DNA of 64,000 nt, taken from NCBI GenBank assembly GCA_051294905.1, contig CM119371.1, forward strand, positions 2,668,001 through 2,732,000, given 5' to 3'. Source of the stretch: Botryllus schlosseri. Its lineage: Eukaryota. Both the position numbers and the translations under genes were made by a program. Under the pieces are notes generated by a model, which was not told the DNA's origin, searched no databases, and saw only the letters and a program-made list of their open reading frames with translations. Within the stretch, counting starts at the first letter, position 1. Each line of letters starts with the position of its first letter. Positions 1 through 56,792 of the stretch are shown here, one piece after another.

Positions 1-3000
1 CGAGAAATACAGCCCTCGTATCTGATATCTTAATATATTTTCAGAAATAGCACCATGGCTATTAGAGATGTCAATAGTTTAGAGCAGTGGTTCTCACAGT
101 TTTTAGCGGGAGACCAAATTTTATGTTACTTTACATTTCGCAACCCAAGATTCGCTCGTGTAAAAATGCATTTCTGACACAAGTAAGCCCATGCAACTAT
201 TTTACGAGCATGTATGAATCAGGCAAGGTGCAGACGAAAAGACAGTCAATATCAAAGTAGGCTACCTATACCTTTCCGGAGTACTCGAGTAAGTAGATTT
301 GATTAGATCTGCTAACCATATTTAGGCAGAACTTTTTCGACTTTGGATTTTGCCAACTAGAAGTTGGTTTTGGGATAGGTAGCGAGCACTTTTACGTATA
401 AATTTTCATAACGGTGAAGTAGCGTCTGAATCACGGTCATTAAATTTATTTAAAATGGAACCAATTACTGGAAATATTTTTTGGCTCATTTTCAAACAAG
501 TTTTTTGCATTACAGTGCTGCCAATTAGCCACAATCGACAACACACGACATGCGATTTAATTACCGGTAGTTGCATAATTTCAAAATGTCGTGGTTCGAG
601 TTCTAGTTGCACATCTCAAAAATCCAGTGGTTTGAACAAATTTGCTGTATTACATTATTTTAAGAAGTGTGTAGGCCTATACTAGTGATTCTCATTGGCT
701 GAAAGATGATCAAGTGTTGTCAAGCAGGAATGACGGCAGAAAATAAAGCAGATAACGATCAAATTTAATGTCGGATATAATATTGCAAATATCAGCATCA
801 ATAGGAATTTTACCTGGTTTCCAATGAAAATTCAACACTTGACGTGTGACTGGTCCAAAAATGTCTGGATTGATATCGATTGAAACTTCTCAAAGCTTTT
901 AAAGCGTGTTCGATTGTTTGTGTGTGAAGTTGGTGAATGCGAATCAGAGCTTGTACGCTGGAATTCTTCAGATCTCGTATGACTCGAGATTCCGTGATGA
1001 CTACACCGCGCCGATCTTTGAATTGGAACAGAAGTACCTGAAAACATGATCGCATCAGTTTATCGAAGCACTAAAAAGGTAAACGCGTTAGCCAATAGCA
1101 AGGAAAAGCTATACAGTCGAGTATGCTATTTCGGACAGTTTTGTTTTGCTTCCTTTCGGCAAAAATAAGCAGAGACACTGCTTTATCCAAACTAACCGAC
1201 AAATCAATTTCCCTTTTATGGCAACCCGGTGAACCCTTACACTAATCTGAAAGCCTTTCGTGAACCCCGTATTTTTGTCAAGTCACAAAAAAACCTATCA
1301 CAAGACACTTCTAATACATTACTATAGAACTCTAATGAGTGCGGAATGACTTATGCATCAAGCTTCCGTGTTAAGAAAAACAAAACCGTTAAAACATGAT
1401 CATCACACAAAATTCACGACTGTAAATCAGTGTGACTTCTGTTGTATGAGTTGGATGTACAGAGGAACTGTATCGTGCGAAACGAGGTATGCTTGCTGTA
1501 CAGACCGTTGTCGTTCTCATGCTTATGAGACTGAGGTCTGATTTAATATGAACTGGACTTCATTCCATGTCCAAGTTTTCGCGAATTAAGTGATTCTAAT
1601 TCCAATCTAACTTTGAAAAATTGTGTAGATTCAACTCTGATTTTAATCATAATTTGAAAAAAGTCTGGTAATAATTATAATTCTAAATCTAGTATAGTTT
1701 GTAAAAAAACTGTGGGTTTTAGCCATCATTCTATTTCCAATCTGATTTCGAAAAGTTGAAAATGATCTAGTTGTTCAAATCTGGCTCATAGAACCTCTGG
1801 AGTTATCGTGTAAAACCCCGGTTAGGAATCATTGCTTCAAGATAACCTAATTAGAAAGTACGTTAATAGTTGTGATGCTGACATACCTACAACTATTTGA
1901 CACATCTAGGAAGATTGTGAGCACAAAGTCGAATTGTGCGTTGCATTTTTCAGTTTGGCCGGCTTTGCATTTTCAATCTTCGCAAGTTTCTTCCATTCTA
2001 TTGCGTTGAGACCTTCAGCGGCTTGCGTTCCTAAACAAAAAATCACAGGTGCACTGTAAAAAATATCCTCGGTAAATCCCGACATTAGGTTAGGTTCAAA
2101 ATTATCCGACTTGTGACCCGGGAAACTACTTTCCGACCTCATTAAAGTAGGTAAATCCCGAGTTTTCCATTACTCGGATTGGAAAAAACCGACCCTTATT
2201 GATAATTTTCATCGACCTTTCACCTATATTTTCATTGACCTTTCACCTCAGCCAAATCCCAGCTGTGCTGACTGACTAGGATTGCAAGAAACCGAGCCTG
2301 ACAAATAATTGTCATTGACCTTTCACCTTAAACACACAAAATCAGTAGTCAGTCTGCAGATTAAAAAGCAGTGTATATTAGCAGCAAATAAAGCATTGTT
2401 TCATAAAAGTATACAATCAGCAATATTGGAAACCTGCAGTGTCACAAATTAATAATGATGCGTAATTATTTCAGGTAAACAAACAATATATGTTTGTTGT
2501 TCAAGTTGAAAATTTTATTATGTAATGAGCACGCTGTGATGGTGCCAACAATTGAACATTGGTGCTTATAAGGTTTAGGCCAGTTGGTTGCCAATACGTT
2601 AAGCATTCCAAAAATATAATCAAAAGACCAAACTCTGGGCCACGCCCACGACCATTACAAATATATTGCGAATTGATATCGACAAGGACTAGCATCGATT
2701 AATTAAAAAACCAATGCTAAGCGTCACAACACAAGATATTACTGCTGGCAGTCATCAAAGAGGGCAAAAACAGGACCGCCACAAATCATAATATGACAAT
2801 TAATCGTTGAGTGTCATGTTTATCTTGTTGCGAACAGCATTAGTTGGTTTGACGTTTGGAAGCTTGGCGAGAAAAGTTGCGACAAAGTTCAAGGAGTTTG
2901 ATGATGAAGGAGCAAACTTCACATTGAAAACCCAATAAATAGCCATCAGGCATGCTAGAGCATGGTGAAAACCAAATAAACCTTTCACAACTTCTCCATC

Positions 3001-3278
3001 GAAATGAATCGTCCACTTTTCCGTCTCAGAATTGAATGCGATGGTCGGATAGACATTCTTCGGCTCCTACGAAATATAAATGTTACTATCCAGTATCCAT
3101 GGAATAGTTTAAAAGAGTGTGAGGTTTATGGATCAGTGATTTATAATGTGGGCGGGTAGGCAGAAGCTGGAACATTATGTAAATTATATTTAATTAATTA
3201 ATTATAACCCATTGGGAAATATCAAGCTTGATGCGGGGTTGTTCAGTGAAAATAAGTTGGAAAACAATAGGCGTAGAT

Positions 3279-3824
3279 CAGGGGCGGGCCGCGGATCTGG
3301 CCCGCGAGGCGATTTTGTCCGGCCCGCGGACAGTTTCCCGTCTTAGTTGATAATGTGGCCCGCCCGCCGGTGTCGGGTCAATATCGAGAAAACCATTACC
3401 GGGAATGCGTGCCACAGGAGAGCTTACGCGTAAGTTCGTGGACGCGAGAAGACTTTCATTATCGGCATTTACGATGTACTCAACCAAAATGGATTGATAT
3501 CTTGGTAAATTTGTGGTACCGGGGTTATCGAACGCCTTGAAATCTTAATTAAGGATTGCACCATGTGTTGATCGATCAGACAGAAGCAGATATGGTGGCG
3601 CCTGTATGACAATGATGTTCTCAAATCCACATTGTCTTCCTCAACATCGGCGAGAAATGGCTTTGAAATGACATAGGTGTCGTTACAATACATTCATTAC
3701 ATGCGATTTATTCTTTGTATATGAGGATAAATGGGCTAATAATGTATTGATTCAGCTATCCGGCCCGCCAAGTACTTAATTTTCCTACATCCGGCCCGCT
3801 GACTGGAGAAGCTGCCCGCCCCTG
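3279..3824. mobile_element. hAT-type MITE in the last intron of the accessory gene
   Basis: TIR CAGGGGCGGGC...GCCCGCCCCTG; perfect 8-bp TSD GCGTAGAT (3271-3278 and 3825-3832). Confidence 0.9.
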
Positions 3825-6636
3825 GCGTAGATCAACACGAGCACATATAAATATTCTACAAGATACATCATGTGGTCATATCATATCGTCTCAAATTAAA
3901 TTAAGTACGAACTGTGAAAACAATACTGACAGAGGCCATTTTAAATGTCCAAAATTATGTAATGAATGGGTGGAAATGTTTAGCTGCATTTTGAGAGATA
4001 CCGATGATCAACACACCTTGTCCACAATCAGGAAGTTGTCATACTTCTCTTTGAAGATCGTTGGGATGTACACCATCCAGTCCAGTTTTTGAGTACCTGA
4101 AAACGAAGTGCCAACTCAGATTAAGCACTTAAAGGACAGAAAATGATTCCCGAAATAACAAATAACGTAGTCAGCGTAAGTTCGAACTTTTGCGGTTTAT
4201 CAAGTAAAGGGGGTACGTTGACACATGCGTAGGGCACAATAATTCGAGTACTCGAATAGGAATCCAGTATAAATTGTAATGAAAAACGATTGTTTCGAGT
4301 ATTGTAATTATATGCTTACTATATAAGTCCGTGATTTCCAAAGGACTATCCGCCGCTAGTATGAATCTTGATGCTGAACTATAACTCTTCTCCAAAATCT
4401 TTGACGTCAGGTCGACAGAGTAAGTATCGTCGGAATAGTCTTGTTTCTGACAAATCATTTTCATTTCTTCCAAAATCTGAACAGTTGAAAATATTGACTT
4501 CATAGCATATGCCATGGATGGTCTTCAATTTGATTAGTAGTTTAAATTGACGTGCAAGTCCGGTGACGTACTGGTCATAACTATGTATAATGTTCTACCA
4601 ATACCAATAAAATATATATCATATCATTTAGTGTAATTCATTCTTGTGCGTTTCGTATGTATGCACACGGGGCTTATAAAAGGTGCCCGAAACCAATACT
4701 TTATACCTACCCAATGAGCATCTGCCAAAACTGGGTACGCACGCAACAGACTCGTTGTTGGTGTCCCTTTGATAACTTCATGTCGACGATCTTTAAAGGT
4801 CCTTTTCATCCTATCCATGATTGTGTCTTTATCAGCATTTCGGCTTCTTTTCCACTCAGTCATAATTTCCTTTTGGTGCGCTTCGATGCTACGCTCATCT
4901 TCCGGCGGGTATACGGTTGGAATCTACAAGAAAAAATATATTTTCTAATCAGAGATGGTCAGAGGCATTTTTCATCGTCAAGTTTTGACGAGTTTATAAT
5001 TGCGTAATTGCTATTACTGCGCAAATATAGTCGATAGACTCTCGCATAGGCCGAGAGTAGGTTTGGGCGAAGGTACAGACCAATTTCTTCAATATTCTGC
5101 GGAGGCGGGTCGCGGGGTATTTTCCAATAAAAGTTTGAGATTGAGAATATAAAAAGTTTGGGAACCCATGCGTTGAAAAATTCGCGTGACGCTGTTCGTT
5201 ATAGACCAGTGATTCCCAACCGCGGCCCCCAGCTACCCGTGTTTCGGCCCCCACAAAAATATTGAGGAATCGATTTATTAAAAAAAAATTATATTTATAA
5301 AATACTCTTGCTTGGCTTGGAGTCTGGAGTTTTCTATTAGGATTGTAGGCAAGTTTTGAGTAGACTGCTAAGATTGCCCCAACTTTCCAGATGAACGGGC
5401 TGTACCTATAGATATAGGTATTGACAGGACCGTTTCAAAATATGCTATTCTCTTGTGCTCAATATCAATATCCTCAATATTCCCCCTCTCACCCGTTATA
5501 CAGGTAACAAACGTTAATGAACAATGAAGGATTTGAAAATTCTTACAATGCATGATGACATTCGAGGTTTGGTGCACCTTTCACTCGATGTTCCCACAAC
5601 AAGGTCGTCGGTATGTTTCCGTTTACCCTGACGGTGTTTTCCGTGTTTTTGCTTTTTTTCCGTAACAAGAGGATCTTTACGGCCCCTACGGTACTCCTGG
5701 AACTGGGTTATGAGCTGTTTTTTCCAAGAATGCTGCAACGTAAGATATTTGAAGAAATGTTTGGAATGTTCAAACACAAGCAGCTCACGAAATTTTCACA
5801 TCCATCGAATTTCAAACGATCTTGCATCCAAGGATATTTCGTTATCAAAGCAGCTACTGGCGCATCGTATTGTTGTCTTGTGGGATATAGACTAGGAATA
5901 ATGACTGTTTTAGGCCACTGCAATTATCGTCATATACAAGAAAGGTTTATTATTTATATTGTAGGTCACCTAGTGTATTGCAGCAGGTCCCAAAACAGGT
6001 GATGAACAATTTTCAGTCTCAATTTTTGTGGAAGTACTTTTGTCTTTTCATACTGCTTCACTTCCTTTTCTATGGCTTTTGGTAAAGAAATCCTATATTC
6101 GTTGGGCTATGGCAATGGTTTGTTGTTTTCGTCACAATCTGCTGAACTGGTAGATGCCTTGGAGCTCGACAAGGTACTGTTTGATATACTTTCATCTGAA
6201 GAGAAGGATAAGGAATGAGGAAAATATTAATAATTCACCGTAAGTCAATACCTTCAGGTTCAAAATCTTCAACAGGCAGGTTAGGAAATGAAGAATCACA
6301 GCAGTATCCAACATTGTCAATGCTTGACGTTTCACTATGCATTACGTCTTCGTTAGATTGCCCTCCTGAAGCCATCGTGCTGGTGCAATCGGAGCCGAGT
6401 ATATCCAAGTCACTTTGTTCAACAACAGAGTTGTTGGTTTTCGGATAGGTTACCTCTGCACCAATAAAAATAGACTCGATGAGGGGTGAATCTATTTCGC
6501 CAAGGCACATCTGATCAGACTTGGAGAACTACGGTAGATAATTATAGTTGCGTAATTTCAAAAAATTATTGCGAAATGACAGTATTCTAATTCTAATCTA
6601 ATTTATTGCAAGAAAAAATATGAGTATAGGTAAATA

Positions 6637-7086
6637 CCGTAAACCGGGGTAACTTTGGACACTAAGCAGTAAAAGATTTAAATGGTTATTGATGAAAAAG
6701 GGTTGCCGCTGGATGTCCAATTCTTTTTCATGAGGCAGCAGTACTACAAGTAGTCTTTATAAAAGGTGGATTCATTTCACTACCAGATAAACTTGACCCA
6801 ACATCGATAAATTAATGGAGGGGGTCAATTTCGCCAAAATTGATGGCCAATAAACTTCTTACAGCCAAACATAGATAGCATGTGATTCATAGATTCAAAA
6901 CTTTGGACACAGATAATTTACAAAAATAAGGTACTTATTTATGATCATGAAGATTTTGGATTAGTTAATTCTAATCTTTGCTCCATGACTCCAAAAAAAC
7001 ACAAAACTTGCCTCCCCTACACCCTAGCATTTCCAAGATACAAAGCGGAATTGTTGAAAATTGTCCAATGTTACCCCGGTTTACGG
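6637..7086. mobile_element. Tc1/mariner (pogo-like) MITE
   Basis: TIR CCGTAAACCGGGGTAAC...GTTACCCCGGTTTACGG flanked by TA on both sides. Confidence 0.85.
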
Positions 7087-7501
7087 TATTCATCTCTCTC
7101 ATGAATGAGCCTACTGATCCTACATTTCACTTACTGCCACTGGTGCTCAAAATCAGCCGCAACATTAGTCCATCTACAATTTCCGACATGTCATGAAGAT
7201 CGACGTACGAATCAAATGTCTTGTCGTAATATTCCATTTTGAATTGATTGTCACCAATTTCATCATGAAATACATTTCTCACAACATCAGGAACCTCAGA
7301 TTGGTGATCAACTCTGATCACTCTTTTACTGTCACCATAACTAACCAGCAGTTTCATATTCAACTGTACAACAATCACAGCGGTAGTGTGTTGTGTATCT
7401 GTAAAATACAATGGTCATAATCAAAATAATGAAAATTGCAAAAAAGTTGTGAAAGCAATATTTTTCGATCAACATACTGCACTGTATAAGCTCAATTATC
7501 T

Positions 7502-9841
7502 TTAGGGTTCAAACTTGAAACATATTTGTTGATGCAGCCTAATGTACTGTGATTTGCCAATGAAGTATGCATCGTGGGGCCTTTGGTAAAATAATTCCCC
7601 GGGCTGAAAAACGTAAACAGTACCAGTTTCCTCCACAGCATGGCAGTGTAAATGTCGTACAAATCTCGACCTCAGCAATTCACCACACATGTGCCACTGT
7701 TCATTGAAATAAAGAATATATTGTACACGACAAAATATTGGTCCATCATCATCCTCATTTACAACATAAATCCCCCGCCTACCATATGTTTCATATCCAT
7801 TGTCATATAATTTCGAAGAACATACTTGTCCTTCCATATCTTGTATTCCAAGAAATGCAACATAGTGGCTTGGTATATCTTTCCATGATATGTTTACGAG
7901 CTCGATATTCATTGGATCATCATGCAAACAATTGAGTGAAGACATTTCCCAACATTTTCTGTACTGAAGTCGAGTGGCTACAGTGTGAGTTATGTTTTTG
8001 AAGTTTCCAGAAATTCTACAAATTTTTTTTACGATCTGATGGTAAGATTCAAATCTAAGAGAGGACAAATGAGAGATCGGGCCGCAGATTTTCGTTGCGG
8101 TCGCATAGTGTAATAAGTAGTGAAACTTCGGCTTAATTATTTCTGGTGCCAGCTTCAACACCGCGCTATAAAAATCAACAACCAGCACATCTAGTGAATG
8201 AATCATCTGAACCGTAACACGTTTAGCAAATACAATGTCACATATATCTGATAACAGCAAATACAATTCCCATACATCATTTTGTTCATCGATTCTTGTA
8301 CCGACCATGAAACTCAGATGATTGAAGAAACACCAGCTCTGCGTTGCAGTCAATGTCGAAACTTTACCTTTGTAGCGAGGCTTATTACGGCTTTCATACT
8401 TGCCATAGGGGAATTGTTGCACAAGTTCAATAAAATCTGACTTTGTCATGTCACAATCTTGAATGATCAACTTGTTTATGACAAGTTCGAGGATTGAAGA
8501 GATACAGCCCTCCATTAGATCATGCATAACGTCGAATACATTACAATGAATCGCATCAAACGCTAAAAGATCAGAAAATGGATTACTCATTCTCACTCCA
8601 TATGCTCTTTCGAGTGATGAGTGCCTTGCTACATCACGGACATGCAGCTCATGGTTGGATGGACACCTCAATTCAAACATTGTTTCAGAAAATTTCACAG
8701 TTAAATCTGAATAATGGCACATACAGAATCTACAAATACGACCGCTACTGAATGAACGACGAAACCCAGATATGTCATGACTTGCTAAATTATCACCAGT
8801 GACTGTTGCTATACTACCTTTGAAATGCCTTGTCATGCCATTCCAAAGAGTTACATCCATTCCAGATGTTTCCAGGGATTTTAAATCTTGAATCAACGGC
8901 TTGACTATCGCATGATATCCCATTTTTTTCACAGTGGAAGTTTTTACAATCAAGACCGGATGAATATTCCTCAAGTTCGACAAAAACTTCACTTCCACAT
9001 TTCCAAGCGTAAAATAAAAGCAAGTAAGCTTGTGTATACTTCTCGAACTTCCCAATGGGTTACAAATTTCGACATCATCTAAATATAAATGGATGCGCAG
9101 CAAACTCTGATCACCTTTAAAAAAGTGATTATTTTTAAACAAATCCCCATCGCAGAAGTTGCACAGAAACCCATGAGCAGAAGAACAAGACATATTCGCA
9201 TCTACACTTTCAATTACATCCTTGTGTTCCAAGTATCTTTTCAGAGTACTTAATATGGGAATATATTGATATGATTGGTCCTCATCCCCTTCACAAAGCA
9301 CTTTAACGGGCTCAACAAGACCTATGCTTGTTAAACATTTCTTAAATTGATAGTCACTCTGTGTTTGATCCATCATTTGCCTCAGATCTGGCAAATTATC
9401 AACATTGTTGGTAGCACAAGCATTTTTAAATGCTTCTAAAAGCTCAACTACGCCGAATAAGATGTCACGGGATACCGAAATTGGCAACAGATGTTTTTCG
9501 CGACATTGCAAAGCAAACCGCAAAAATACATCATGAATGTTTGGTAAACTGTCAATAACTTTCCCAGTCTCTTGCTGCGACTGATCCGACTGTTCTAGGG
9601 TGGAAACGCGCAGATCTGCTTCAAAATCTGAGTTTAACACTGTTCGTTTCACATGCTTGCGGTTAAGATGCATCCTGAAGCTATGATAAGTCGAAAACGG
9701 TGGAATTTTACCATTGCACGGCTCCATCTTGCAGTTGAAAGTGTTGCAGAAACGATGAATTCTGCGCACATGTTTCAGCAAGGCTTTTCGCGATGAAAAC
9801 TGATTAGAAATACAACCTGATGCAGGACAAACCCAATTCAT
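7502..9841 (-). CDS. CMC-EnSpm transposase with N-terminal C2H2 zinc fingers (~779 aa, intronless, uninterrupted)
   Basis: Likely start at MNWVCPASGC (ATG at 9841). Two C2H2-like fingers (CPASGC..HVRRIH; CKMEPC..HLNRKH). Family motifs YLDDVEICNPLGS, GDNLASH, CRFC, DVMHDLMEG, KPKFHYLLHY, SLRFESYH. Confidence 0.9.
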   Translation of the reverse strand: MNWVCPASGCISNQFSSRKALLKHVRRIHRFCNTFNCKMEPCNGKIPPFSTYHSFRMHLNRKHVKRTVLNSDFEADLRVSTLEQSDQSQQETGKVIDSLPNIHDVFLRFALQCREKHLLPISVSRDILFGVVELLEAFKNACATNNVDNLPDLRQMMDQTQSDYQFKKCLTSIGLVEPVKVLCEGDEDQSYQYIPILSTLKRYLEHKDVIESVDANMSCSSAHGFLCNFCDGDLFKNNHFFKGDQSLLRIHLYLDDVEICNPLGSSRSIHKLTCFYFTLGNVEVKFLSNLRNIHPVLIVKTSTVKKMGYHAIVKPLIQDLKSLETSGMDVTLWNGMTRHFKGSIATVTGDNLASHDISGFRRSFSSGRICRFCMCHYSDLTVKFSETMFELRCPSNHELHVRDVARHSSLERAYGVRMSNPFSDLLAFDAIHCNVFDVMHDLMEGCISSILELVINKLIIQDCDMTKSDFIELVQQFPYGKYESRNKPRYKGKVSTLTATQSWCFFNHLSFMVGTRIDEQNDVWELYLLLSDICDIVFAKRVTVQMIHSLDVLVVDFYSAVLKLAPEIIKPKFHYLLHYATATKICGPISHLSSLRFESYHQIVKKICRISGNFKNITHTVATRLQYRKCWEMSSLNCLHDDPMNIELVNISWKDIPSHYVAFLGIQDMEGQVCSSKLYDNGYETYGRRGIYVVNEDDDGPIFCRVQYILYFNEQWHMCGELLRSRFVRHLHCHAVEETGTVYVFQPGELFYQRPHDAYFIGKSQYIRLHQQICFKFEP

Positions 9842-10167
9842 GGCCGTCTGATGGCGTGAAACCGCACAGCGTTCGTTACCTCTGCTGTGTTCTGGCGAAA
9901 TGCGTGGTACGCACGCGGATCCACTCGCGCGGCAAATTATTGACCTCAAAAGACCTCTCTCGGGTCGATATAGTAGCAAATAGTTGGGGAAACTTTGATG
10001 ATGTAATCTCAACTCCCGATTTTACAATGGAATTTTCCACTGACAAAAATGTTTTGACAAAGACCATACTCACATGTAATCACTTTCAGTGCATGCTTGA
10101 GTGCTGTTTTGACAAAGACTTATACTCACATGCGTGTACACTGTACAGTACGTCTTGTGAACATAAC

Positions 10168-10857
10168 ATGCCTGAAACGGTGGATTTTTGCAGAGAAGTA
10201 TTGCAGCTTCGCAATGATTTCCACGTTATTTGGGAATCTCAAGAAAGGATATTACGCAGTAATCAAGAAGTAATGAATTATTTGAAGACAGTTGCTGATG
10301 ACGTGAAAAAGCAGACTAGACGGACGGACACGATTTACAAAATTTTCCAAAAAAAATACGGCATCTTGGAGGACATACCCAGAATTATCATGGCAGATGA
10401 AGACAGCTATAAAAAAATCCTTCGCCGACCAAATGGACAGAGATTTTTGATCTCGGATGAGCTATACCACTTATTGCATTCCACGTGTGGCCTACGCGAA
10501 CGAATTCTCAAAGATATTGAGATCATAGTGTTAGTTGCCAAATATATGGATGTTCGAAATATCCGATTCTGCAGGACGAATCTTCAACTAGACGGCGACG
10601 CCATGTCAGAAATTTTGGGTGTTAGTTCCTTCAAACCAACGTTCCAGCAAATGTGGAAGCTCCTGTATTATCGACATTGCGTCCCAGTGAGCGAAGTACA
10701 AGCAACAGAATTTAAAAGATCCCATCAGATCACATGGTCACAGCAATTCGAACTTCAGAAGTCGAAATCGGAAGCTGTCATCCCAGAAACCGACGCCCTC
10801 TGGCAGATTGTAGGGCGAGCTGACCTTGACGAAGCCAGCAGCGGACAACAGGCTTGA
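10168..10857 (+). CDS. Intronless coiled-coil + SWIB/MDM2 (MDM2 p53-binding-like) domain protein, ~229 aa
   Basis: Part of the open 9820-10857 frame. Best start is aacATG at 10168; AATAAA at 10926. Residues at 10444-10689 (ISDELYHLLHSTCG..EIIVLVAKYM..DAMSEILGVSSF..MWKLLYYRHCVPV) parallel the MDM2 N-terminus (LLLKLLKSVG..EVLFYLGQYI..DLLGDLFGVPSF..IYTMIYRNLVVV, recalled from memory). Confidence 0.7.
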   Translation: MPETVDFCREVLQLRNDFHVIWESQERILRSNQEVMNYLKTVADDVKKQTRRTDTIYKIFQKKYGILEDIPRIIMADEDSYKKILRRPNGQRFLISDELYHLLHSTCGLRERILKDIEIIVLVAKYMDVRNIRFCRTNLQLDGDAMSEILGVSSFKPTFQQMWKLLYYRHCVPVSEVQATEFKRSHQITWSQQFELQKSKSEAVIPETDALWQIVGRADLDEASSGQQA

Positions 10858-11351
10858 TTTGATCAGTGACAAATGACGAAAAATTCGACGGTTGATAATT
10901 GCCTGATATGATAGGTTGGAGAAGTAATAAAATCACAAGATTCATTGGTTGTCTATATATGTGTAATGTTTTCTGTAAGCCAGTGTGAGTAATAGCCAGG
11001 CGCGTAGCCAGCCGAAAAATAAGGGGGGTTTGAAATAAAAGGTGGTGCTGGTTTCGATTTTTTCCGAATTTAGTAACGTAGCATTGACTCATTAGGGTTA
11101 AGTACATGCGATGCGTAAACAACGATTATACGACATCCCCGTATTGGCGATTATAGACGTATGATAAGCTTGTCGACGAGTCCGGAATTGCTGTTAATTA
11201 GCGACTCCCTGATCTGTCGTGAACAATGAAATACGCACGCGTCGAACATTTGAATACGCGCGCTTATCAACGAGCTAATGGTCATGAAGTCAGCATCGCA
11301 CTTTTCTACTAGTGGTAACCATAGATGGCTATACTTTCTAAGTAGCTTCAA

Positions 11352-11930
11352 GCAGGGTTGTTGATTCTACTTGAGTAATTTCTTGAAATGACTCGACTCG
11401 AGTCAATTTTTGTATTGACTCGTCTTGAACTCGAGTCATCGCGTATGACTCTTACCAAGTCACATGACTCAAGACTGGGACGGTCAAGACAGACATTTCA
11501 TTGTAACTTCGAAATATAGTGAAGCCACCGCATCATTGGTATGTTTTCCATTAGTCCTGATACTTGGAAAATATGGTCAGGAGCTGTTAGGACTGAGAAA
11601 AAGTGCGATATTCTATAACACTCGAGTAGAATTGAAAAAGTGGGTTGAATCGGATTGGACTCAAAACTGAACAGTGAACATAATTACTGTGTTTCCATGC
11701 AGTGCCGACGAACGACCAAAAGGCTATGACGCATGTATTGTACATGATGGCCGTGTTTCCATGACCAGGCTTAATCCAACCTTGTCTTGGCCGAACAAGA
11801 CTGACATGTACGTTTTTATCTCACTTATTCACTATGAATTTCCACCACATCACAAGATTGCGATGAAATGACTCGATAGGAAGGAGCCGATACGACTAGA
11901 ATCGACCATTCAATCAAACTACCCACTTCG
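11352..11930. mobile_element. Degraded hAT-type MITE of the GACTCGAGTC-rich family
   Basis: CAGGGTTG start and clustered gactcgagtc motifs shared with copies at ~18020-18200, 41038-41280, 43911-44391, 47670-47972 and 57730-57823. Confidence 0.6.
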
Positions 11931-13177
11931 ACCTGGAACATGTAGGTAGGCTGAAATTAAACATATAAAAATGGTCCCGGAATGAATTTTTGGAGTTGCA
12001 ACGCCTTGCATTTCAAGCTCGAAAGCCCGTCTTTTTGAAATGACGATTCTATCTCCATTATTACTTAGCTCATTTGCAATTCAGTAGTTTTTATTACAGT
12101 ATTATCAGTTGTTAGTTCGTTGTGTTTGAGTTAGTACGGCATCAGATTTTGAAAGGCCGTTAGTTTTAGATCAGAGGTTCTAAAACTGGGGGCGTGAAAC
12201 CATCTGAAGGGAGGCGCGAAGCTGTGATCAAATAAAAAAAAATCGCGCTTTGCGCAGTTTACATCCAATTCCATATTAGAGGATTCTCACATCAACAGTC
12301 ATAACTAGGGCGATTTTTGTAACATGTCAAAAAATGTCAAAATTATTTACAAAGTTGTATACTACTTTTTTGCAATCTGCATTTTGTTTATATTGTAGAT
12401 TTTGCAGTGTCAGTGCACTTATCGTCTGACATTTACCGCCCAGTCTGCTCATTGTGAATCATAAACATTCAAATAAAACAAATAGGTTGGCATGGTGATA
12501 TGCTCAACGTAATGGGCAATGCATGGTACTTATATCAAGAAGCGTTTTGCTCTAAACATTTTAATTATTTCTACCATAACACGTAATGTTACAACAGCAA
12601 TACTTCATAGGGACAGATTTCGGTAAAATGAATTTTTTCATGTAAAAATTTTTCAGTTATATCGGCAAAATAAAATTTTCAGGATAAACTACTTCGTAAG
12701 AACAAACAATTCCAATCAGAGGTGAAGATAGGTAGTACAATTCTAACGTTATGTGGGAAAACAACTAATTTGTATACGTTAGGTCAAATTTGGTCAAATT
12801 ATTTAGGTGGAAAATTAGGAAGTTACTTGGTATATGAAAGAGCTGGTTGGGGAGAGAAATATTACTGACATATTTGCTTAATAATATTTAATTGGTAGGC
12901 TAATAGACCTAGTCTAAATAAACTTCGTACATAGATACTTCTGAATTCAATCTGCAATTCAATTTCAGATCAAACAAAAATTAGATTGGGTGTCAATAAA
13001 GTTTCAGATTTTGCAAATATTTGGATCAAGACATTATGAAGTATGAGTTGATATGATTAAAGAGCAATTTATTTTAACGGAATACCGGTAGGCCAACATG
13101 AGCGTTATCAGGTTATCACATATAAAAAAAGAGCTTTTTCTGCAAATTTTTTCTTGAAATGGAAGATTTACAAGCAG

Positions 13178-13455
13178 GTGGCGAGATAGCGCAGTGGTAT
13201 AATCCGCGGCTACAACACCAATGGGTGCGGGTTCGAGTTCGACCGAGGTCGACTTCCGAATTTCGATACCTAAGTGTTGGAGGTTTACCTAGGCTCCTCC
13301 TCGCCACCTCATCCGTGTCAGCGGTGTCTTACAAAAGCCTAGAGGTGGGCCGTGCTATAAGTCGGCAGTTACGGAAAACAGAAGAATATCGGCCTGGTGT
13401 AAATGACCATAGTAGTCGATAAACACCATGAATACCCAAAACAACAACAACAACA
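13178..13455 (+). mobile_element. tRNA-derived SINE, full length
   Basis: Pol III A box (TAGCGCAGTGG) and B box (GGTTCGAGTTC), unique body, (CAA)n tail. Homologous copies at 45106-46230 (split) and 54466-54678. Confidence 0.85.
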
Positions 13456-14162
13456 TTTGCAAGCTGATTTGAAATTGTATGTAAATGAGATAGGCTACTT
13501 CGGCAATAAATAGTTGTTCTAATTGTTATGTTACATAAGTTGATCGATTTTATCATGCAAAAGTTAAGGTAATAATTTCAGGTACACAGCCCATAATGTC
13601 TCCCTCTCATTTCTGTCTATATCGTAGGCCTACTTCAAAACTTTTGTGAAGGGTGTCATATGAATTATGTAGTAACATGGAACATGTACTTAAGTAATGA
13701 GTTAGATGCCAAAATTCTGTAACTAGAATATGGAGCATAATTTTCAGAAATATTCCCTGTAGTCCAAGTTCGTAAGTAAATATTACATAAAAACTCCTTT
13801 CCTAAAGATTCTATGCGGCAGGTATTATACGACACTATTTACCAAAATATTCAGGCAAACAGAAATGATAGGGAGAGTTATGAAATATTTTTACACACAG
13901 CGATTTCCATGGGCTTCACCTTCAGCTACATTCTTGGCAGGGCACCAAAGATGAATATTTTCTCACTGGCTTGCTGAATTCATCAATTTATACAACATGA
14001 CAACATTCTCAGGCCTTAGTAGCTCATTTAAACTGACGCAAGTTCAGATCTGCATAAAATCAGCACTTGGATTTCACGGTTAAATGAGCAGAAAGCTTGT
14101 TTTCATCATACGATAACTTGAAAACTTCATTCAAAATGGATACCGGTAGCTATCTACTCAGC

Positions 14163-14883
14163 GATTACCAGTGAACCCAGCCCTCGGTAAACCCAGCCAT
14201 ACAAACCCAGCCCTCGGTAAACCCAGCCCTCGGTAAACCCAGCCCTCGGTGAACTCGGCCCTCGGGAAATTTTGTATTCACTGGCAACCCTAATATCCCC
14301 CTCTCCCAACCCTAATATCCCACCTCCCCCAACCCTAATTTCCCACCTCCACCAACCCTAATATCCCCCCTCCCCCAACCCTAATATCCCACCTCCGGCA
14401 ACCCTAATATCCCACCTCCACCAACCCTAATATCCCACCTACACCAACCCTAATATCCCCCCTCCCCCAACCCTAATATCCCACCTCCGGCAACCCTAAT
14501 ATCCCACCTCCCCCAACCCTAATATCCCCCCTCCCCCAACCCTAATATCCCACCTCCCCCAACCCTAATATCCCACCTCCACCAACCCTAATATCCCACC
14601 TCCACCAACCCTAATATCCTACCTCCGCCAACCCTAATATCCCAGCTCCCAGCTTTAATTCAAAATTTTTCGGGGGCGGAATTCACCGAGGTCCATAGTA
14701 TTCGAGAAACACCATGAATACCACAAAACAAACAAGTAGATTATGTGAGCGCCACGTTATCTCCCCCGCTTACTCAATCCGTGAATACAAAATTTCCCGA
14801 GGGCTGAGTTCACCGAGGGCTGGGTTTACCGCGGGCTGGGTTTGTAAGGCTGGGTTTACCGAGGGCTGGGTTCACCGGCAACC
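14163..14883. mobile_element. MITE with ~110-bp internally repetitive TIRs and 8-bp TSD (Merlin- or Mutator-like, unclassified)
   Basis: Ends GATTACCAGTG / CACCGGCAACC; arms built of aaacccagccctcggt units ending in gggaaattttgtattcac; TSD TACTCAGC (14155-14162 and 14884-14891). Confidence 0.85.
14285..14650. repeat. ~23-bp minisatellite (CAACCCTAATATCCCACCTCCCC) x ~16, containing CCCTAA
   Basis: Direct tandem array inside the 14163-14883 MITE; the minus strand is rich in G runs. Confidence 0.95.
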
Positions 14884-15906
14884 TACTCAGCAATAGCCTT
14901 TCACAAGGTGATGAGTCAAATTTCAGCAAAATCTGCAACTGGATGGAGACCGAATTTCTCTTTGGTTCATTTGACATAGAATTACCTATATAGGCCTACA
15001 TCAGTCACAAAGAATCCAATAAGCTGGCTTGGTCATTGTTCATGGCTTAAGGTTGAACTTAATCGGACTTCCAGTATCATTTTACATTCAGTAATTTTAT
15101 TCTTGAGCTAGGCAGGAAAGAACGATCGATACTCCATGGAAACTCGAAAATTATGTTTGATAGAAGCTGTAAGCCAATATGGAATTGGCGTCTCGTGCAG
15201 ACTGAAGAATCTACTGAATACACACAGGTGTGAAGAAAGACGCTTTTGAGAACCGTCTCGGCACACCAAACATATCACGCTATCAGGACGTATCAGGATT
15301 CCATTTTCGAGCATATTGATTGAATACATAAACACTTCTTCCTTGCCGACGGCGATTTTCAGAGTCCGGGGTTACCGGTGTCGAATATCAAGCCATGACA
15401 CCATTTCAAAAGATTTCACATCAGACCAACCTTTCGTAACACACTGATGCAGTCAGAGGCCATCACAATTTCGAGTTGGTAACCTCTATTCCTATCGATA
15501 TACTGTACTATTGTATGTGAGCACAGTATAGAAGCGCGAAACGGTATACCAATAAAGCACAGGCCAACAATCAATCAACATCAAGTAGCTGTACGGTAGG
15601 TTATCGGTTCGCGCATTCGCCAATTCGGCATCGTGGTGATTCATCTTTTCTTCCTAAATTCAGGTGTACCACGTCAATCTTTTTCGCTTTATCCAGTAAT
15701 ATAAGTAAGTGAGTCAGCCTGTACTCTGAAACATATTAGCCATATTTTCAACGTCCGATCGAATTAAAACTAATATTAGAACACTCAATCAGCTGATTTC
15801 ATTCCATGTTTTGACTCAGAGCCATTCATGCACGTGAGACATTAGCTCCACCACGCGGAAGAACGAAAGGCGTCGAACTGATAACACTCATGCAGTTCGA
15901 TATCAC

Positions 15907-17320
15907 CATAGTGTCCTATATGGTGTCGACACAAGCAAATCTCACGGTTCAATGAAATTGTATCACGTCACAATTTCCATTTGGCTACAGGCAATTTGAC
16001 GGTTATCTTTGACCGGCTTGCCGAGCAATAAATTTGATGAATAGGGTATCAATCGAAAGCTGACTCTGCACTGATTACGAAAATATAAATTTTATTACAC
16101 TCATGGCCCTGGAACCCCCACAATCAGCCCCAAATTATTCATTGTTGAGTAGATTGGCAGTGTGACGCAACAGTGCTGTCTGGCGAAACGAGAGAGAAAC
16201 TCAAGAGCAAGGATGCGGCCGAGCGGCGAGAGTGGGATCAGCTGACGTCGCGGCAATAGCTATGTGCAAATATAGATAACTAACCTAGCTATACTTAGGC
16301 GGAAGGATCTCTATAAGTTGAAGGATATTGCAGGAAAATTCGTAGGTCCCAAATACATTCTGTGGACGCAGTTCTACCTTTACAAATCAAGGAAAGGCTG
16401 GTAATGTGTGCTCGCTTTTAGCGAAGCGCCTATAGAAAGTATCAACAGCGCCACGCATCTCTGGAGCCCTACGCAACAAGCGGGCTAAGGTAATCGATAT
16501 CATAATAATCTGACATATCCAATGAAGACTACTTAGACGTAGCCTAAATATCTCTATCAGCTGAAGGATATTGCGCGAAAATTGGTAGGGACCAAATACA
16601 TTCTGTGAACCCAGTTCTACCCTTACAAATCAAGGAAAGGCTGGTAATGTGCGCTCCCTTTTAGCGAAGCGCCTATAGAAAGTATCAACAGCGCCACGCG
16701 TCTATGGAACCCTACGCAACTAGCGGGCTAAGGCAATCGATATCATAATAATGTGACATATCCCATGTAGACAACTTAGACGTAGCCTAAATATCTCTAT
16801 CAGTTGAAGGATAATGCGCGAAAATTGGTAGGGCCCTAATACATTCTGTGGACCCAGTTCTACCCTTAAAAGTCAAGGAAAGGCTGATAAGGCGTGCTCT
16901 CTTGTACGGAAGCGAATAGAAAAAGTGTCAACAGCGCAGCGTTTCTCTGCGACGCGATTGCACATAGCTATTGCCGCGACGTCAGCTGATCCCACTCTCG
17001 CCGCTCGGCCGCATCCTTGCTCTTGAGTTTCTCTCTCGTTTCGCCAGACAGCATTGTTGCGTCACACTGCCAATCTACTCAACAATGAATAATTTGGGGC
17101 TGATTGTGGGGGTTCCAGGGCCATGAGTGGAATAAAATTTATATTTTCGTAATCAGTGCAGAGTCAGCTTTCGATTGATACCCTATTCATCAAATTTATT
17201 GCTCGGCAAGCCGGTCAAAGATAACCGTCAAATTGCCTGTAGCCAAATGGAAATTGTGACGTGATACAATTTCATTGAACCGTAAGATTTGCTTGTGTCG
17301 ACACCATATAGGACACTATG
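15907..17320. mobile_element. Foldback element, P-superfamily-like (CATAG...CTATG), ~365-bp TIRs
   Basis: Near-perfect inverted arms at 15907-16270 and ~16958-17320; 7-bp TSD ATATCAC (15900-15906 and 17321-17327); core of ~2.7 tandem ~243-bp units. Confidence 0.85.
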
Positions 17321-18349
17321 ATATCACATTTACTTCATAATCTATTTAGTTTTGTCATCTCTCCGAATTTTATTCTCCCGTACACATCGATATTATCGGA
17401 ACAGTCCATAAGCCCACATTTAAATAGGGTATGCATTATAAACATTTAAAATAACTATACGGCCAGAAAGGTGAGGAGCCATCGATGCATGATGCCCTTG
17501 GAAACCGAGGAGACCGCCTGCCTAGTAACCGCTTTGTATATATCGTTTTGCACTTGCCCTATGCCAAGGGCGGGCACCTTCTCCGGTCGGTGAGCCGGAT
17601 ATGGGAAAATTAAGCTCTTGGCGGGTCGGATTATAGAATATATACATTATACCTTAATCGCGTCAACTTCCTCGTTCGGCGCCCAAACTACCGTATCTTA
17701 CTCCACATTGCCAGGTAGTTAAGTAAAAAAATGGTTAACTTTCCGCCCAGCTTCCGAAATACCCGCCGGAGCGTCACTTCGGTGCTGATTTACTGCATAT
17801 CAGTTGCATTTTGCTATAAATATGACCTAAATTCTCAAAAAAGAAGACTGAAGGGCGTCCTCCGAGGACACTTTAAAAAAAGAGGACAAATCCTCTTTAA
17901 AGAGGACGAATGGTAACCCTACCTTAGTAAAGACTGCACGAGAACATCAGTTATATTGGAACGCAGCCCTCCTCGTTAATGTTCGTGGTAGTGTTGGGAT
18001 TAATTCACTGCCTTCGAATCGCAAGTCATCTCGAGTCATTGCACATTTTGACTCGAGTCAAGTCTATTCACTTGATTTTCTTAGGTGACAAGGGCCGAGT
18101 CAAGTCACTCGATTTTTGGAGGTGACCCGAGTCACGTCGAGTCAAGTAACTAGTCAAGTCAAGTTGAAATTTCAAAGTACTAGGCATGATGATGATTCAA
18201 AGTCATTACTAGGGCAATTTCTTTTTTGACACGTCAAAAAAACTCAAAAATTTTTTATTGAAAAAAAAAGCTATTTTCACTCCACCCTACAACGCATGCC
18301 TATTGACATTCCAACATTTAACGACAAATGACGATACATATCCTCACAT

Positions 18350-21300
18350 TATCGAATGTGACTATGGAACGGAAACTCCCGTTTTCCCATTGTTAAGTTA
18401 CGCTCGACTGAATCTAGCGACTTTGGTCAATCGCAGCGCAACAATCGGACAATTTGCCTTAGGTTAAATGGCATATCACACTTGTAGATAATCGACTTTG
18501 ATAACGAAATTACTAGACTAATCAATCAGTGGTAATCTTGAAACTTGCAACAGTGTTAGATGACATCATCAAGATATACAATTCGGAAGCTAGTCGCTCA
18601 TCTGGGTATGAAACACAATCAAAATCAACATAGACCGATAGCGGCTTTTGCGAAAAATCCGTTACGCGCTAGGCTGCGCACACCTATATACTCGACTGCG
18701 ATAACGAAATTATCACCCTAATCAGTTAGTGGTCATCTTGAAATTTGCTACAGTGTTAGATGACATCAATATATATAATTCGAAAGCTAGTCGCTCATCT
18801 GGGTATGCAACACAATCAAAATTAACATCGACCGATAGCGGCTTTTGTGAAAACTCCGTTACGCGCTAGGCTGCGCGCACCTATATATACTTATACCCGA
18901 CTTCGATAACTAAATAGGCCTTTTGCAGGACTTCGATCACGTGACTAGATACGCATAGCAACAACAAATTGGTTAGCAAGCTACTTTCTCGCGCACCTGC
19001 TTCAGTGCTAAATATCGCATAGTGTACTGTTGATTTCTGGTTGTAAACGTTTCGGAAATTTGTTGTAGAAGTCATCAAAGATTCACCTATGATAGATGTC
19101 AATCATGTACAAAGCATTTCGAATGATATCGTCAGAATTACGCAGAAATCCATCGGTAACGTAGTCGTATTACCGTACTCAACTCTGATCATATGTACTT
19201 AAATTTATGCATTTGAAGTAAAGCGATTGGCTTATATTCTGGTAAGAGTATTTGTTAGTTCAAGCAGTACTATTTGTCTGTTGTGGAGCGTGATTTTGGA
19301 TGGAAGATATGGCTGAAGCAGCCGGGACCCGCAAGGATCAGGATATACTGTCTGCTGGTTTGGGTGCTGGCGTGCTGCTATAAAACAAATGTCGCTGAAC
19401 ACATCGGAAGTATCTTTTGGGAGAACCTGCCATCAAGACTAAGCAAATCAGTGCACTTTATTGTTACCTTTTACAATGATAATTTTATTACCACTACTTC
19501 GCAACTGCGATTGAAGTGGATTTGGCAAATCACACTCGATTTTGATAAATAGTTGATGTCACATATGTGCGATATTTAGCGAACTAAGGGAAGTAGCTAT
19601 CATATAACTCTTAGAGCAGCTCAAACGCAGTGACAAGATCGGTCATCCTATACCCAGACGTGGTCAACGTGGTTATTGTTGGGAACCGAGTAGAAGTTAT
19701 GCCTTAATTTATACTCCAGTACAAGTAGCACTAATTACTTCCAGGACATGTCCAAAGTACTTCAAGTGGAAGTAGAAATGAATTTCTGAAAAGCGGTCAA
19801 GAAATTCGTTACATGAAGTAGATTTGGTTGAGGGTCACTTAGTTTTAGAAATTGATGCCATGTGACAACTGTAAACATTGCATGTTGCATCTGCTTGATC
19901 AACGCAAAAGGGTGATGACACCACAAATAAGTGCAATTTTCAAAAATTAATTTAGTTACCGTGGTACAGGGGCTATTTTGCCCAGTTGTTATGACAACCT
20001 CACGCTTGAAGGGGATGCAATCATGCGCCAACGCTACTTTCTAGTTGACAAAATCCCAAACCTGACAAAAAAGTACTACCTAAAAAGTGTCAAGTAGAAG
20101 TGGAAGTAGCCTAAACTCATAATGACGCTAGTACTCAGGTAAAATAGTACTTCGTTTCTGACCCCCTCTGTGTATTGGCTCATCCAACTCAGAAACATCC
20201 TCTAAAGACGACTAACATTGTTTCTTTCGCATTGACTCCGTAATATTCTGAACTTATGATATTCTTTGATTCATTGAATTTACAAATAAACTTGCAAAGA
20301 AGATCGATTTATTAATTTTTGTGCATCCGATACCCAGAGCATAAGAAATAGTTGAAGAAAAATGGATGTTAACCTTATCAAGTTCAATAACGGCCGAGAC
20401 TGTTATGCATATGTATTTTCCTCTACCTCCATAGCCACTTGTCTAGACATATTCATAGCATCCACGGAAGAGCGCTTGTCTTGCTGTACACAAATGAAAT
20501 ATCATTTTCAAAGCAGACATCAACATCGGGAAAGAAGTTCAGGACAGTTAGTCAGTGGTCAGATCATCTGCTGACATTTTCTGTTGGCATGAAACCACGC
20601 TGCCTTCCACCGCATGACCAAATTTTATGTGGTGATAATAATTGGCTCCAGGTTGAATTCTTGACGAGGGCATCATCAATTTCTTAGTTGCCTATGTTCG
20701 GCTCTCTTGGGATAATCCATCAGATCATTATTCCGTATGCATGTGGTATAGCCATATGTCTTGAAACTCAAGATATTTGCACTGTGCCATAGAGTGAAGT
20801 AATCCAATCCAGGCAATCAATCAAGTAATCCAGGCCCCGGGACAGTTTGTTTCACCCTCAATTGGAGCTGATGATCATTTTCCTTCGGGTAGTGCCGTAG
20901 TGGCACTTGGCAGCATGACAGAATGATCAATAACTTGTAATATAGGTGTAGAGGTCTAAACATTTTGAATTGTTTAACTGAGAAGTCATACAATAGCTTA
21001 GGATATTTAATATATATATGGTATGTAGCACATTGCATGAATTCATAACACATCAACGTACTGGCACTGGCAGTCATTCTCTCTTAGGCTTAAAAATAGC
21101 AGTATCCTATATTGCAATCGATATCAATCATCAAAATGCTGCAATGATTACCAACTACCGCTACAATACAACTATAGTATACTATTCACATCTAACTTAA
21201 TGCTGCAATAAATATCACGCAGTCAATGTCCTGCAATGTCGAATTTTGTGTCATAAAATCATAGTTGACTACCAAATAACGGCTACAATGTCGATCATTT

Positions 21301-38715: not shown

Positions 38716-39534
38716 TTGTAAGGTAATCAGTAGTGATGATGCATACCAAATTTGGCTCAATTCCAACCGCTACGAACGAAGTTATTGCCGTAGTAAAATT
38801 TCCAATTCCATGATTTTATAGGAAATAATTATAGCTTTTAATACAACATCCACTGTAGTACAATATTTAAACTCAAATACTTTTCGGCACTCTAAAGGGA
38901 TGTAAATGGATTTAGAAGCAAAACCAAATCTGTTTAACTTCCTTCAGTGTGCCGTCAACTCTTGAAAGAGGCAACAAAAAAGTCTTCGAGTTTAATAAAT
39001 ATTCTACTACAATAGATTTTGAATTGAAAGCTATAATCAAGTTTTGAATCACGAATCAGCTATTTGAATAAATAATTAGAGAGTTTGCTACCGTAAAATT
39101 ATTTTATTCATGTCCAAATTTTTTTTCACTGCAATAACTTCGCTTCTAGTGGTTGGAATTGAGTCGCATTTGGTGTACATCGTCTCTACTGACAGCCCAA
39201 CAATTGTACGTTGTTGACAGAAAAATTTTAAAATTTAATTTTTTAACGATCAATCACAAAACTTTCTACTGTAAGAAAATCGCTTCTACTGGTTGCAATT
39301 GACCCAAAATTGGCGTGCAGCGTTATTTTCGCCAACCTAACAATTTTATAACATAGCCGAAGAAATCTGAAGGTTTTTTGAACAGCCCTAATGCAGAGAA
39401 TGCATGTATAATGCTTTCTATCACGGCCCTGGCGTCACCAATCACGTGCGATTGTCACGTCACAAGTCTCCACATACCTACATAAAATTATAGTGGCTTG
39501 TTAGTACACAACTAAATCATAGAATCGATCTCAC

Positions 39535-55400: not shown

Positions 55401-56792
55401 TGCGAACGACCGACCATCGCTCTTTTTGCAAGTGTTTAGAGTTGAAGCTCATGAACTTTGTACTCGTCATTTCGGCTACAAAGCCCGCTGCAAGGAATTC
55501 CTGGAGACTTTGATGGCAGAAGAAGAAATTGAAATTGCCATCTAACAGATTGCAACTGAGGAGGTTATTTCCTGGAACCTTCATCATGATATCTTGAACT
55601 TCTTCTTTTGAAAGTTTAAACTTCTTCAAATCATTTTCAGAGAATGTCACTCTCCCCTCTTTCATGCCACGATATGCCATCGCTTTCAATTTATTGATAA
55701 TCCCAGCAATAGCATCAGCCTTTCTAATGTTTCTCACACTACTTAGAGTGGATATAATTATTTTGTAGAGTCCTGTGACCGTTTCAGGAGGAGGCTCATT
55801 CGTATTCTTGGCCATGATAACTGCGGTTAAGACCAGAAAAACGGGAATGGAAACTAAATTGATCAGTCTTGGTGACATCGTTTCTATCCTCTCCCATGGG
55901 TCATCCCCATGCTGACGTAGCAGAAACACGAAAAGCTTCTTTGCATCATCTAGAGTTAGACCAGAAAGTGTCATGATGTTGGCAGGTCGAGCTTCCACTG
56001 GTAAATCCGAGACTTGGAATTCTCGGGAAGTGATGACGATCTTTGTATCACCGAGTAGATTACGTGAGAGGATATTGTACATGATCGTTGCTGCGTTGGC
56101 TGAAGTATAGTGATTTATTTTCTCGTCTCCATTGTTATTGATTTTCCACATGGCTTGATCCAAGCCGTCAAAAAATAAAACTGCTTTTGATTGATTTTGT
56201 AGCAACCACTGATATGCACGTTGCTCGTTGATTTCATCTGAAAAGAGGCCACCGAAGAGAAATTTTGATGGCTTGATGAATCCTATATCTTGCATGCCTT
56301 TTATTTCTATATACCGTATTAATTTATACTTGAGCTGAGACGGGCTTGCAATGGCGTCTGTATTCGTAAGTGAATGCCCTAAAGTTCTTCTTGCGATTCT
56401 GCGCACAAGAGTGGTTTTTCCAGATCCTGCGGATGCAACTATGGCGGTGATACAACTTTCCCCGTTGATAACTTGTTGCAAAACTTCATCTAGCTCGATG
56501 AATTTGTCGTCGTCAACTTTTTGTCGGAGGAATCCGAACTCCTTTCTGAATTGATTTTTCACAACCTCCTTCTTTTTCCAGAAGAATAATTTTCTTTTCA
56601 TCGCAACTTCCATTCCGTGCACCTCTTCATAATTGCCTTTAAAATATTCTGACCTCTTCACCAGCCTCATCTGGGGATGAACCTGGAAATCTGGTTGGCT
56701 GAGATCCTCATCGGCGAAGTCTTCAAGAATTTTATCAGCCGTCGTTCTTGACGAATTTTCGTTGATTGAATGGATCAAATCTAAACACGAGT
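49420..56792 (-). CDS. NLR (NACHT-LRR) innate-immune receptor gene, partial: exons 56792-55350 and 49724-49420
   Basis: Walker A ASAGSGKTT, Walker B LFFDGLDQ, sensor IVITSRE, IPVFL, winged-helix FCHQSLQEFLAA. The donor at 55350 and acceptor at 49724 join in phase 1 (HE-V-SNR). The second exon has ELYTAIYES and the LRR LKSLLLYECNI. The N-terminal exon was not identified. Confidence 0.88.
50720..52150 (+). mobile_element. Second, degraded CACTA/EnSpm element inside the NLR intron
   Basis: CACTGTAAAAATAAAGG terminus at 50720 with (a/g)ggtgga subterminal repeats; followed by a frameshifted homolog of accessory exon 1. Right end unresolved. Confidence 0.6.
51709..51935 (+). pseudogene. Frameshifted first exon of a SAMD3-like EnSpm accessory gene
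   Basis: MKLSVKLSNYCRLITVDDASEI/VVVSEIYEGELRERDFKIQCYDRRFGQYVDL aligns with MKLLVSYGDSKRVIRVDHQSEVPDVVRNVFHDEIGDNQFKMEYYDKTFDSYVDL (7357-7135). Confidence 0.7.
52239..52903. mobile_element. MITE carrying a 42-bp minisatellite
   Basis: Ends CAGACCTGGGCAACTAG / CTAGTTGTCCAAGTCTA; ~12 copies of TCTAATTCTAGTTCTAATCTAATTTGGAAAAAGCTGTGTAGC. Shorter relatives at 46709-46860, ~6516-6610, ~1590-1790 and ~24780-25280. TSD not clear. Confidence 0.75.
54466..54678 (+). mobile_element. 5'-truncated SINE copy
   Basis: Body and tail homologous to 13248-13455; tRNA head absent. Confidence 0.8.

Follow-up and report, generated by a model that had tools for sequence, protein, structure and literature searches.

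On the plus strand of a 64,000-nt stretch of the Botryllus schlosseri genome (hereafter the window: GenBank assembly GCA_051294905.1, contig CM119371.1, positions 2,668,001 to 2,732,000 of the forward strand), an open reading frame (ORF) of 229 amino acids (aa) stands head-to-head with the ORF of a CMC (CACTA/EnSpm-Mirage-Chapaev)-type transposase. Our favoured reading, though one we hold as evenly balanced, is that the 229-aa ORF represents a gene confined to one lineage, with a SWIB/MDM2-type domain, next to a low-copy CMC transposase gene. On this reading it would adjoin the transposase gene while lying outside the conserved gene set of the transposon family, and its product would begin with a long N-terminal helix, after which comes a strongly diverged domain of SWIB/MDM2 type. 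The features on which this reading draws are, in coordinates of the window:

7502 to 9841, minus strand: transposase ORF, 779 aa, uninterrupted, ATG at 9841 (ORF listing).
9820 to 10857, plus strand: open frame of 345 aa (ORF listing).
10168 to 10857, plus strand: 229-aa orphan ORF, read from the internal ATG at 10168, with a predicted long N-terminal helix, a putative SWIB/MDM2-like middle and a short tail.
10432 to 10692, plus strand: stretch aligning with the p53-binding (SWIB) domain of MDM2/MDMX, residues 89-175 of the 229-aa ORF.
9842 to 10167, no strand: gap of 326 nt between the divergent start codons.
10926 to 10931, plus strand: AATAAA, 69 nt 3' of the stop of the 229-aa ORF, read from the sequence.

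The start codons at 9841 and 10168 diverge with 327 nt between them, and the ORF listing bore out both ORFs, their start positions and their spacing as given in an earlier interpretation made from the letters alone (the sequence-only reading). Only six stop-free frames of at least 150 aa occurred in the window, two of which were the transposase and the 229-aa ORF, so that neither is taken to be a chance frame. The earlier description of the pair as intronless stood for the openness of both frames, with the caveat that the transposase ORF was spliced internally (GT..AG, 8817-6456) in contigs of two RNA-like runs. Downstream of the 229-aa ORF, the AATAAA at 10926-10931 would be its polyadenylation signal. 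The gap held an imperfect direct repeat of 27-28 nt at 10050-10076 and 10105-10132, 36-118 nt 5' of the ATG of the 229-aa ORF, with a 15-mer core that was unique within the window; this duplicated motif may be a promoter element, or alternatively a subterminal repeat of a transposon. Scanning of 9842-10167 found no inverted repeat or recognisable element terminus, in agreement with what the sequence-only reading had said of the space between the ORFs.

The 229-aa ORF is most likely a real protein-coding gene restricted to one lineage. A single relative, P0001, emerged from a word-indexed search of 5.8 billion proteins; it was 88% identical across all 229 residues, had an intact frame and differed by a single indel of one residue, in frame. 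Seven of the 27 substitutions between the two fell in the central third, a manual count that we read as a trend only. An exhaustive HMMER (phmmer) scan of 1.84 billion representatives returned three matches, namely P0001, P0058 and P0059, the last two of which were judged spurious, being internally repetitive and matched in 6-7 stretches; viral contigs scanned with the alignment of the 229-aa ORF contained no relative. As the P0001 alignment runs from 10168 to the stop codon, 10168 is a sensible start. The ATG of P0001 itself lies 11 codons further upstream, and since it is reached only through a 5-nt difference from the window sequence, the extension 9820-10167 does not appear to be conserved as coding sequence.

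For the middle of the encoded protein, modelling suggests that a very divergent SWIB/MDM2-like fold is probably present, on support that was weak but convergent. The nearest ESM-Atlas clusters were SWIB (PF02201) for the whole ORF (0.88, with 191 shared features) and for residues 84-180 (0.84), values that serve as leads only; these clusters comprised SWIB proteins of 93-213 aa, mostly from Nucleocytoviricota. When an AlphaFold model of residues 84-185 (low confidence; predicted local distance difference test, pLDDT, 44) was compared with the PDB using Foldseek, four of the eight weak matches were MDM2 or MDMX, and the aligned span paired model residues 6-92 with MDM2 residues 24-111, the whole p53-binding domain. 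Identity to MDM2/MDMX was 16-24% across the whole domain, and in statistical terms a generic plant SWIB domain did equally well. The structural matches (n = 15) included the SWIB domain of Arabidopsis At5g08430 and two chains of RSC and SWI/SNF modules, which we take to contain SWIB subunits, the identity of the matched chains being likewise assumed. The register of MDM2 motifs proposed by the sequence-only reading agreed with the model alignment to MDM2 24-111, and its finding of no acidic, zinc-finger or RING region was also upheld, with no Pfam match to any such family in the 229-aa ORF and no Cys/His pattern in the tail of about 53-54 residues that follows the domain. In the AlphaFold model of the full-length protein (low confidence; mean pLDDT 38) a helix covered residues 2-64. 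A wide structural search with that model gave coiled-coil and long-helix matches over residues 1-128 only and was uninformative on the domain, and matches of the N-terminal helix to RA domains (ASPP2-like_RA and RASSF8-10_RA, E 0.03-0.05) were rejected as far below cut-offs.

Set beside known proteins, residues 89-175 align in the model end to end with residues 24-111 of MDM2, the MDM2/MDMX N-terminal domain (PF02201), whereas the 229-aa ORF has no Pfam or PDB sequence match to it, lacks the acidic region, zinc finger and RING of MDM2/MDMX, is only 229 aa long and carries a long N-terminal helix. Small stand-alone SWIB proteins (giant-virus, chlamydial and plant organelle proteins, and the BAF60/Rsc6/Snf12 modules) supply the nearest ESM clusters and some of the structural matches. 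Unlike 17 SWIB ORFs from viral contigs, however, the 229-aa ORF has no motif of the type W-x-Y-I-K...L-Q-D and scores at the level of shuffled sequence against their profile, and Foldseek against BFVD yielded no SWIB match. The protein may, as is thought for other stand-alone SWIB proteins, serve as a small adaptor that binds proteins or chromatin, perhaps forming multimers by way of its helix.

The neighbouring transposase begins with C2H2-like Cys/His motifs, followed by a putative CMC/CACTA-type catalytic core. Among 56 homologues of similar length the best, P0002, was 57% identical and the others 23-42%; full-length relatives measured 767-835 aa and covered 95-99% of the window protein, and named sources were tunicates, sea cucumber, molluscs, insects and a rotifer. 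Pfam signals on the window protein were weak and below the Pfam cut-offs (Plavaka, E 0.002; DUF4218, E 0.12), and of 16 aligned members three matched Plavaka, three Transposase_21 and two DUF4218, while precomputed labels for PF02992 and PF13960 were attached to several homologues. The window protein retained 47 of 47 invariant columns in the 16-sequence alignment (A1). Residues D255, D350, D437, D441 and E444, invariant across 16 sequences, were all present, and some of them may form the catalytic triad. Given the homologues, the weak Pfam signals and the retained invariant columns, the window transposase is, as far as its sequence tells, an intact member of a CMC-type family that is widespread in invertebrates; the sequence-only reading had also called it intact, which the unbroken 779-aa frame and the full set of invariant columns support.

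We compared the locus with 80 metagenome-contig loci carrying related transposases (24-45% identity, several of them near-duplicates of one another). A relative of the 229-aa ORF was found by tblastn and phmmer in none of the 80. A same-strand ORF of at least 100 aa lay within 3.5 kb downstream of the transposase at 17 of the 32 loci having at least 1.5 kb of downstream sequence; these downstream ORFs clustered by homology into groups of 10 and 6, and between copies at 78-91% identity the downstream blocks were conserved. On the upstream side, 27 loci had both a complete N-terminus and 1.1 kb or more of preceding sequence; only three of them had an antisense ORF of at least 100 aa within 1 kb, and these three ORFs were unrelated to one another and to the 229-aa ORF. 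The comparison showed that the family has a conserved predicted second gene (ORF2) located downstream on the same strand, examples being found at loci L004, L008, L028, L031, L037, L046, L063 and others. ORF2 belonged to no Pfam family, the sole exception being a sub-threshold PB1 match (E 0.0012) in the relative at L063. Traces of this second gene and of its splicing were found in the window as follows:

7127 to 7357, minus strand: 76-aa ORF just downstream of the transposase, resembling the PB1/ubiquitin-like start of ORF2.
4669 to 5893, minus strand: further pieces of an ORF2 homologue (5893-5729 and 4923-4669), in the same order as in the relatives.
6456 to 8817, minus strand: alternative intron (GT..AG) within the transposase ORF, with the joint 6455/8818 in contigs of runs X11 and X13.

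With tblastn, ORF2 proteins matched the window at 7246-7142 (L037, E 6e-4) and 7213-7136 (L028 and L029, E 0.07), at 5893-5729 (L063 residues 183-237, E 2e-5) and at 4923-4669 (L071, E 7e-8; L056, E 5e-5). Part of the stretch 4669-5893 was transcribed and spliced in raw RNA run X23, which had a depth of 4-8 over 5568-6135 and reads spanning the joints 5731/5791, 5893/5973 and 6195/6252. Removal of the intron 6456-8817 uses canonical splice sites and joins codon 341 in frame to the exon starting at 6455, and the spliced product is predicted to be either an N-terminal, zinc-finger-only isoform, about 414 aa long if translation ends at the 6237 stop codon, or a fusion that continues into exons further downstream. 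With ORF2 pieces downstream and a splice to 6455, the transposase unit would extend on the minus strand towards lower coordinates, in the direction opposite to the 229-aa ORF, having an ORF2 of its own with a PB1-like start and being alternatively spliced into the downstream region. In plant En/Spm, TnpD and TnpA are made by alternative splicing. The locus resembles CMC two-gene transposons in the weak Plavaka/Transposase_21/DUF4218 signals of its transposase family, in the same-strand second gene downstream in many relatives, and in a splice that joins the 5' part of the transposase to downstream exons. It differs from them in being low-copy with no CACTA/CACTG termini or target-site duplication found, in an ORF2 with no Pfam family beyond the sub-threshold PB1, and in the placement of the 229-aa ORF, which lies across the transposase from ORF2 and on the other strand.

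In DNA run X1 the locus was low-copy, with both ORFs single-copy-like in depth: 35-129 over 7556-10963, compared to 65-134 over the unique neighbour 5568-6419 and thousands over the flanking repeats. Both ORFs thus shared one low-copy block between high-copy repeats (6420-7271, and from 10964), and no second copy of the transposase or the 229-aa ORF was found in the window, and the DNA run showed none with at least 90% identity. The label CACTA, which the sequence-only reading had given to the element, holds as a family name for the transposase and fails as an observed terminus, since no inverted pair of CACTA/CACTG ends accompanied by a target-site duplication was found. The best CACT[AG] pair matched at 14 of 24 positions without a duplication, which we judged to be chance level among the 110 pairs compared. 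Between 3000 and 20000, general scans for inverted repeats turned up short AT-rich matches and one 92-nt pair, and no convincing terminal repeat. The points at which nucleotide similarity between related loci ends were also considered as markers of element termini and dropped: similarity tracked coding sequence only, starting 0-66 nt before the first in-frame ATG in 7 of 10 comparisons and inside the frame in 3 of 10, and therefore located no terminus. At the locus pairs L018/L021, L005/L020, L028/L036, L043/L045 and L001/L024 (83-93% identical), only coding sequences were conserved, which would fit long-term selection on the protein, in active subfamilies or in domesticated genes.

Several results weigh against the favoured reading. 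PF02201 was unmatched even at E<=10 by the whole ORF, by residues 84-185 and by P0001, and phmmer against PDB sequences returned no MDM2 or SWIB chain. A hidden Markov model (HMM) of the 17 viral-contig SWIB ORFs, which represent one narrow subfamily, gave the domain -1.1 bits, a score that 644 of 2000 shuffled sequences equalled or bettered; hhalign against the same alignment gave a probability of 0.6%, and Foldseek against BFVD yielded 18 weak matches (E 2.4-9.5), none named SWIB. The structure models were low-confidence both at full length and for the domain, and the signals for the fold are not independent of one another, as all may stem from the same few sequence motifs. The claim of an MDM2-type domain in the sequence-only reading fared unevenly, gaining from the SWIB neighbours in ESM, the Foldseek matches to MDM2/MDMX and the agreement in register, and losing by the PF02201 result and the low confidence of the models. 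As to expression, raw RNA run X23, of which about 6% was read, had zero depth over 10112-10963, and the 229-aa ORF was covered only by contigs of X13, at a depth of about 4 and with strand unknown. As to position, the 80 loci are distant, several are near-duplicates and the flanks of P0001 and P0002 lie outside the comparison, which leaves room for a capture specific to one element lineage.

Much of this would also be accounted for if the protein had no SWIB fold, and were instead a young or decaying lineage-specific helical protein, or some other mobile-element relic, whose chance motifs bias both the language model and AlphaFold, an explanation that we consider rather unlikely. It would make sense of the failure of every sequence-profile test for SWIB, of the low-confidence models, of an Atlas 'recognition' of 2007, which falls under the 2300 reached by 91% of known-family proteins, of the closeness of the sole relative P0001, and of RNA support for the 229-aa ORF that was near nil (contig depth 0-4, as against 19-33 over the 5' exon of the transposase). 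It is harder to reconcile with a structural search that, independently of the Foldseek ranking, agreed with the separate language-model search, and with P0001, which keeps the frame and whose indel is in frame.

A second alternative grants the SWIB-type gene and makes it lineage-specific cargo, captured by the element, carried inside its termini and expressed divergently from the 326-nt gap; our analysis leaves this unlikely. The start codons are indeed only 327 nt apart, the gap contains two copies of a 27-28-nt motif found nowhere else in the window, and both ORFs occupy the same low-copy block between high-copy repeats. Capture has a reported precedent in fungi, where DNA transposons including EnSpm, Plavaka, KDZ and other elements took up TET/JBP dioxygenase genes (PMC12730594). 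Plant VANDAL elements carry an anti-silencing gene, VANC. If it were cargo, the 229-aa ORF would resemble these cases as a chromatin-type accessory gene on a CMC-type element, but cargo such as TET/JBP and VANC recurs in many copies and lineages within termini, whereas the 229-aa ORF was seen once. Against capture, a relative of the 229-aa ORF was absent from the related loci and was not found beside any transposase relative in the protein collections searched, the conserved accessory gene of the family lies on the opposite side of the transposase, no terminal inverted repeats enclosed both ORFs in the 3000-20000 scans, and no second copy at 90% identity or more turned up in the DNA run. Moreover, no transposase relative above 57% identity was found in either length class searched, compared to 88% for P0001, so that P0001 has no equally close transposase partner on record, though short contigs could hide one.

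The sequence-only reading had linked the 229-aa ORF to the transposon and had suggested that the pair is co-expressed divergently. The link was not supported by the count of 0 in 80 loci, a single real relative, single-copy-like depth and an accessory gene of the family on the other side, and neither the 80 loci nor the window contained both ORFs together within shared CACTG termini with target-site duplications. The sampled raw RNA reads gave no sign of symmetric divergent expression, and those of X23 covered neither ORF body. Under the reading we favour, of a lineage-restricted gene beside a low-copy transposase, the head-to-head position would reflect neighbourhood, or at most a lineage-specific acquisition, and not a designed two-gene transposon module.

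The sequence-only reading had gone further and suggested a p53 decoy, a copied MDM2 p53-binding domain without the RING that sequesters the transactivation helix of p53-family proteins and so blunts the damage response to transposition; this is very improbable, for although the best structural matches were specifically MDM2/MDMX N-terminal domains over their whole length (in a tie with generic plant SWIB) and the ORF has no acidic, zinc-finger or RING part, its ESM neighbours were generic viral SWIB clusters and not MDM2, a shared fold is no proof of a shared ligand, the transposon linkage is itself unsupported, and the sampled X23 reads covered neither ORF. Equally far-fetched, in our estimate, is its fuller form, in which a marine-invertebrate CMC transposon lineage acquired a RING-less MDM2-type domain, drove it divergently from its 5' region and thereby dampened the p53-family response during transposition. 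At the level of titles and the opening of abstracts, the papers listed on SWIB/MDM2 with transposons included none on a transposon-borne SWIB/MDM2 gene.

Other features of the window were recorded alongside these. A miniature inverted-repeat transposable element (MITE)-like insertion of about 470 nt at 6615-7087, with inverted ends of 34-42 nt (6620-6661 and 7062-7102), sits between the ORF2 pieces; it was high-copy in the DNA run and was bypassed in one contig (joint 6615/7087). A joint 6345/9730 with 22 other letters in between occurred in contigs of one DNA and one RNA-like run; this form would lose nearly the whole transposase. With just 30 nt on its shorter side, the joint may reflect an allele, a copy bearing a deletion or an artefact of the assembly graph. 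The 92-nt inverted repeat pair (3739-3830 and 17559-17650, 80% identity) has its arms 13.7 kb apart and spans the whole locus with no flanking duplication, and may be two copies of a short repeat. Tandem arrays were present at 14165-14881 (period 23 nt, flanked by 85-nt inverted arms), 16307-16949 (period 243), 52251-52876 (period 42) and 57828-57953 (period 9). Two further frames of at least 150 aa carried Pfam domains, one being a GC-rich reverse-transcriptase ORF of long interspersed nuclear element (LINE) type at 36487-38769 on the minus strand (RVT_1, E 5e-25) and the other a NACHT/NOD-like ORF at 55327-56817, also on the minus strand (NACHT, E 1e-12).

Carriage by the transposon together with binding of p53-family proteins would, if true, make the 229-aa ORF the first animal transposon counter-measure of its sort, but the present evidence supports neither step, and we regard the cargo and p53-decoy ideas as unsupported and the fold idea as plausible but unproven. 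On the side of the transposase, the locus documents, for a CMC family widespread among animals, a conserved second gene downstream together with alternative splicing. If the fold is true, the 229-aa ORF would contain a SWIB/MDM2-type domain too divergent for profile searches, in a protein with a single known relative, and would be useful for testing how hidden MDM2-like domains can be found in invertebrates.

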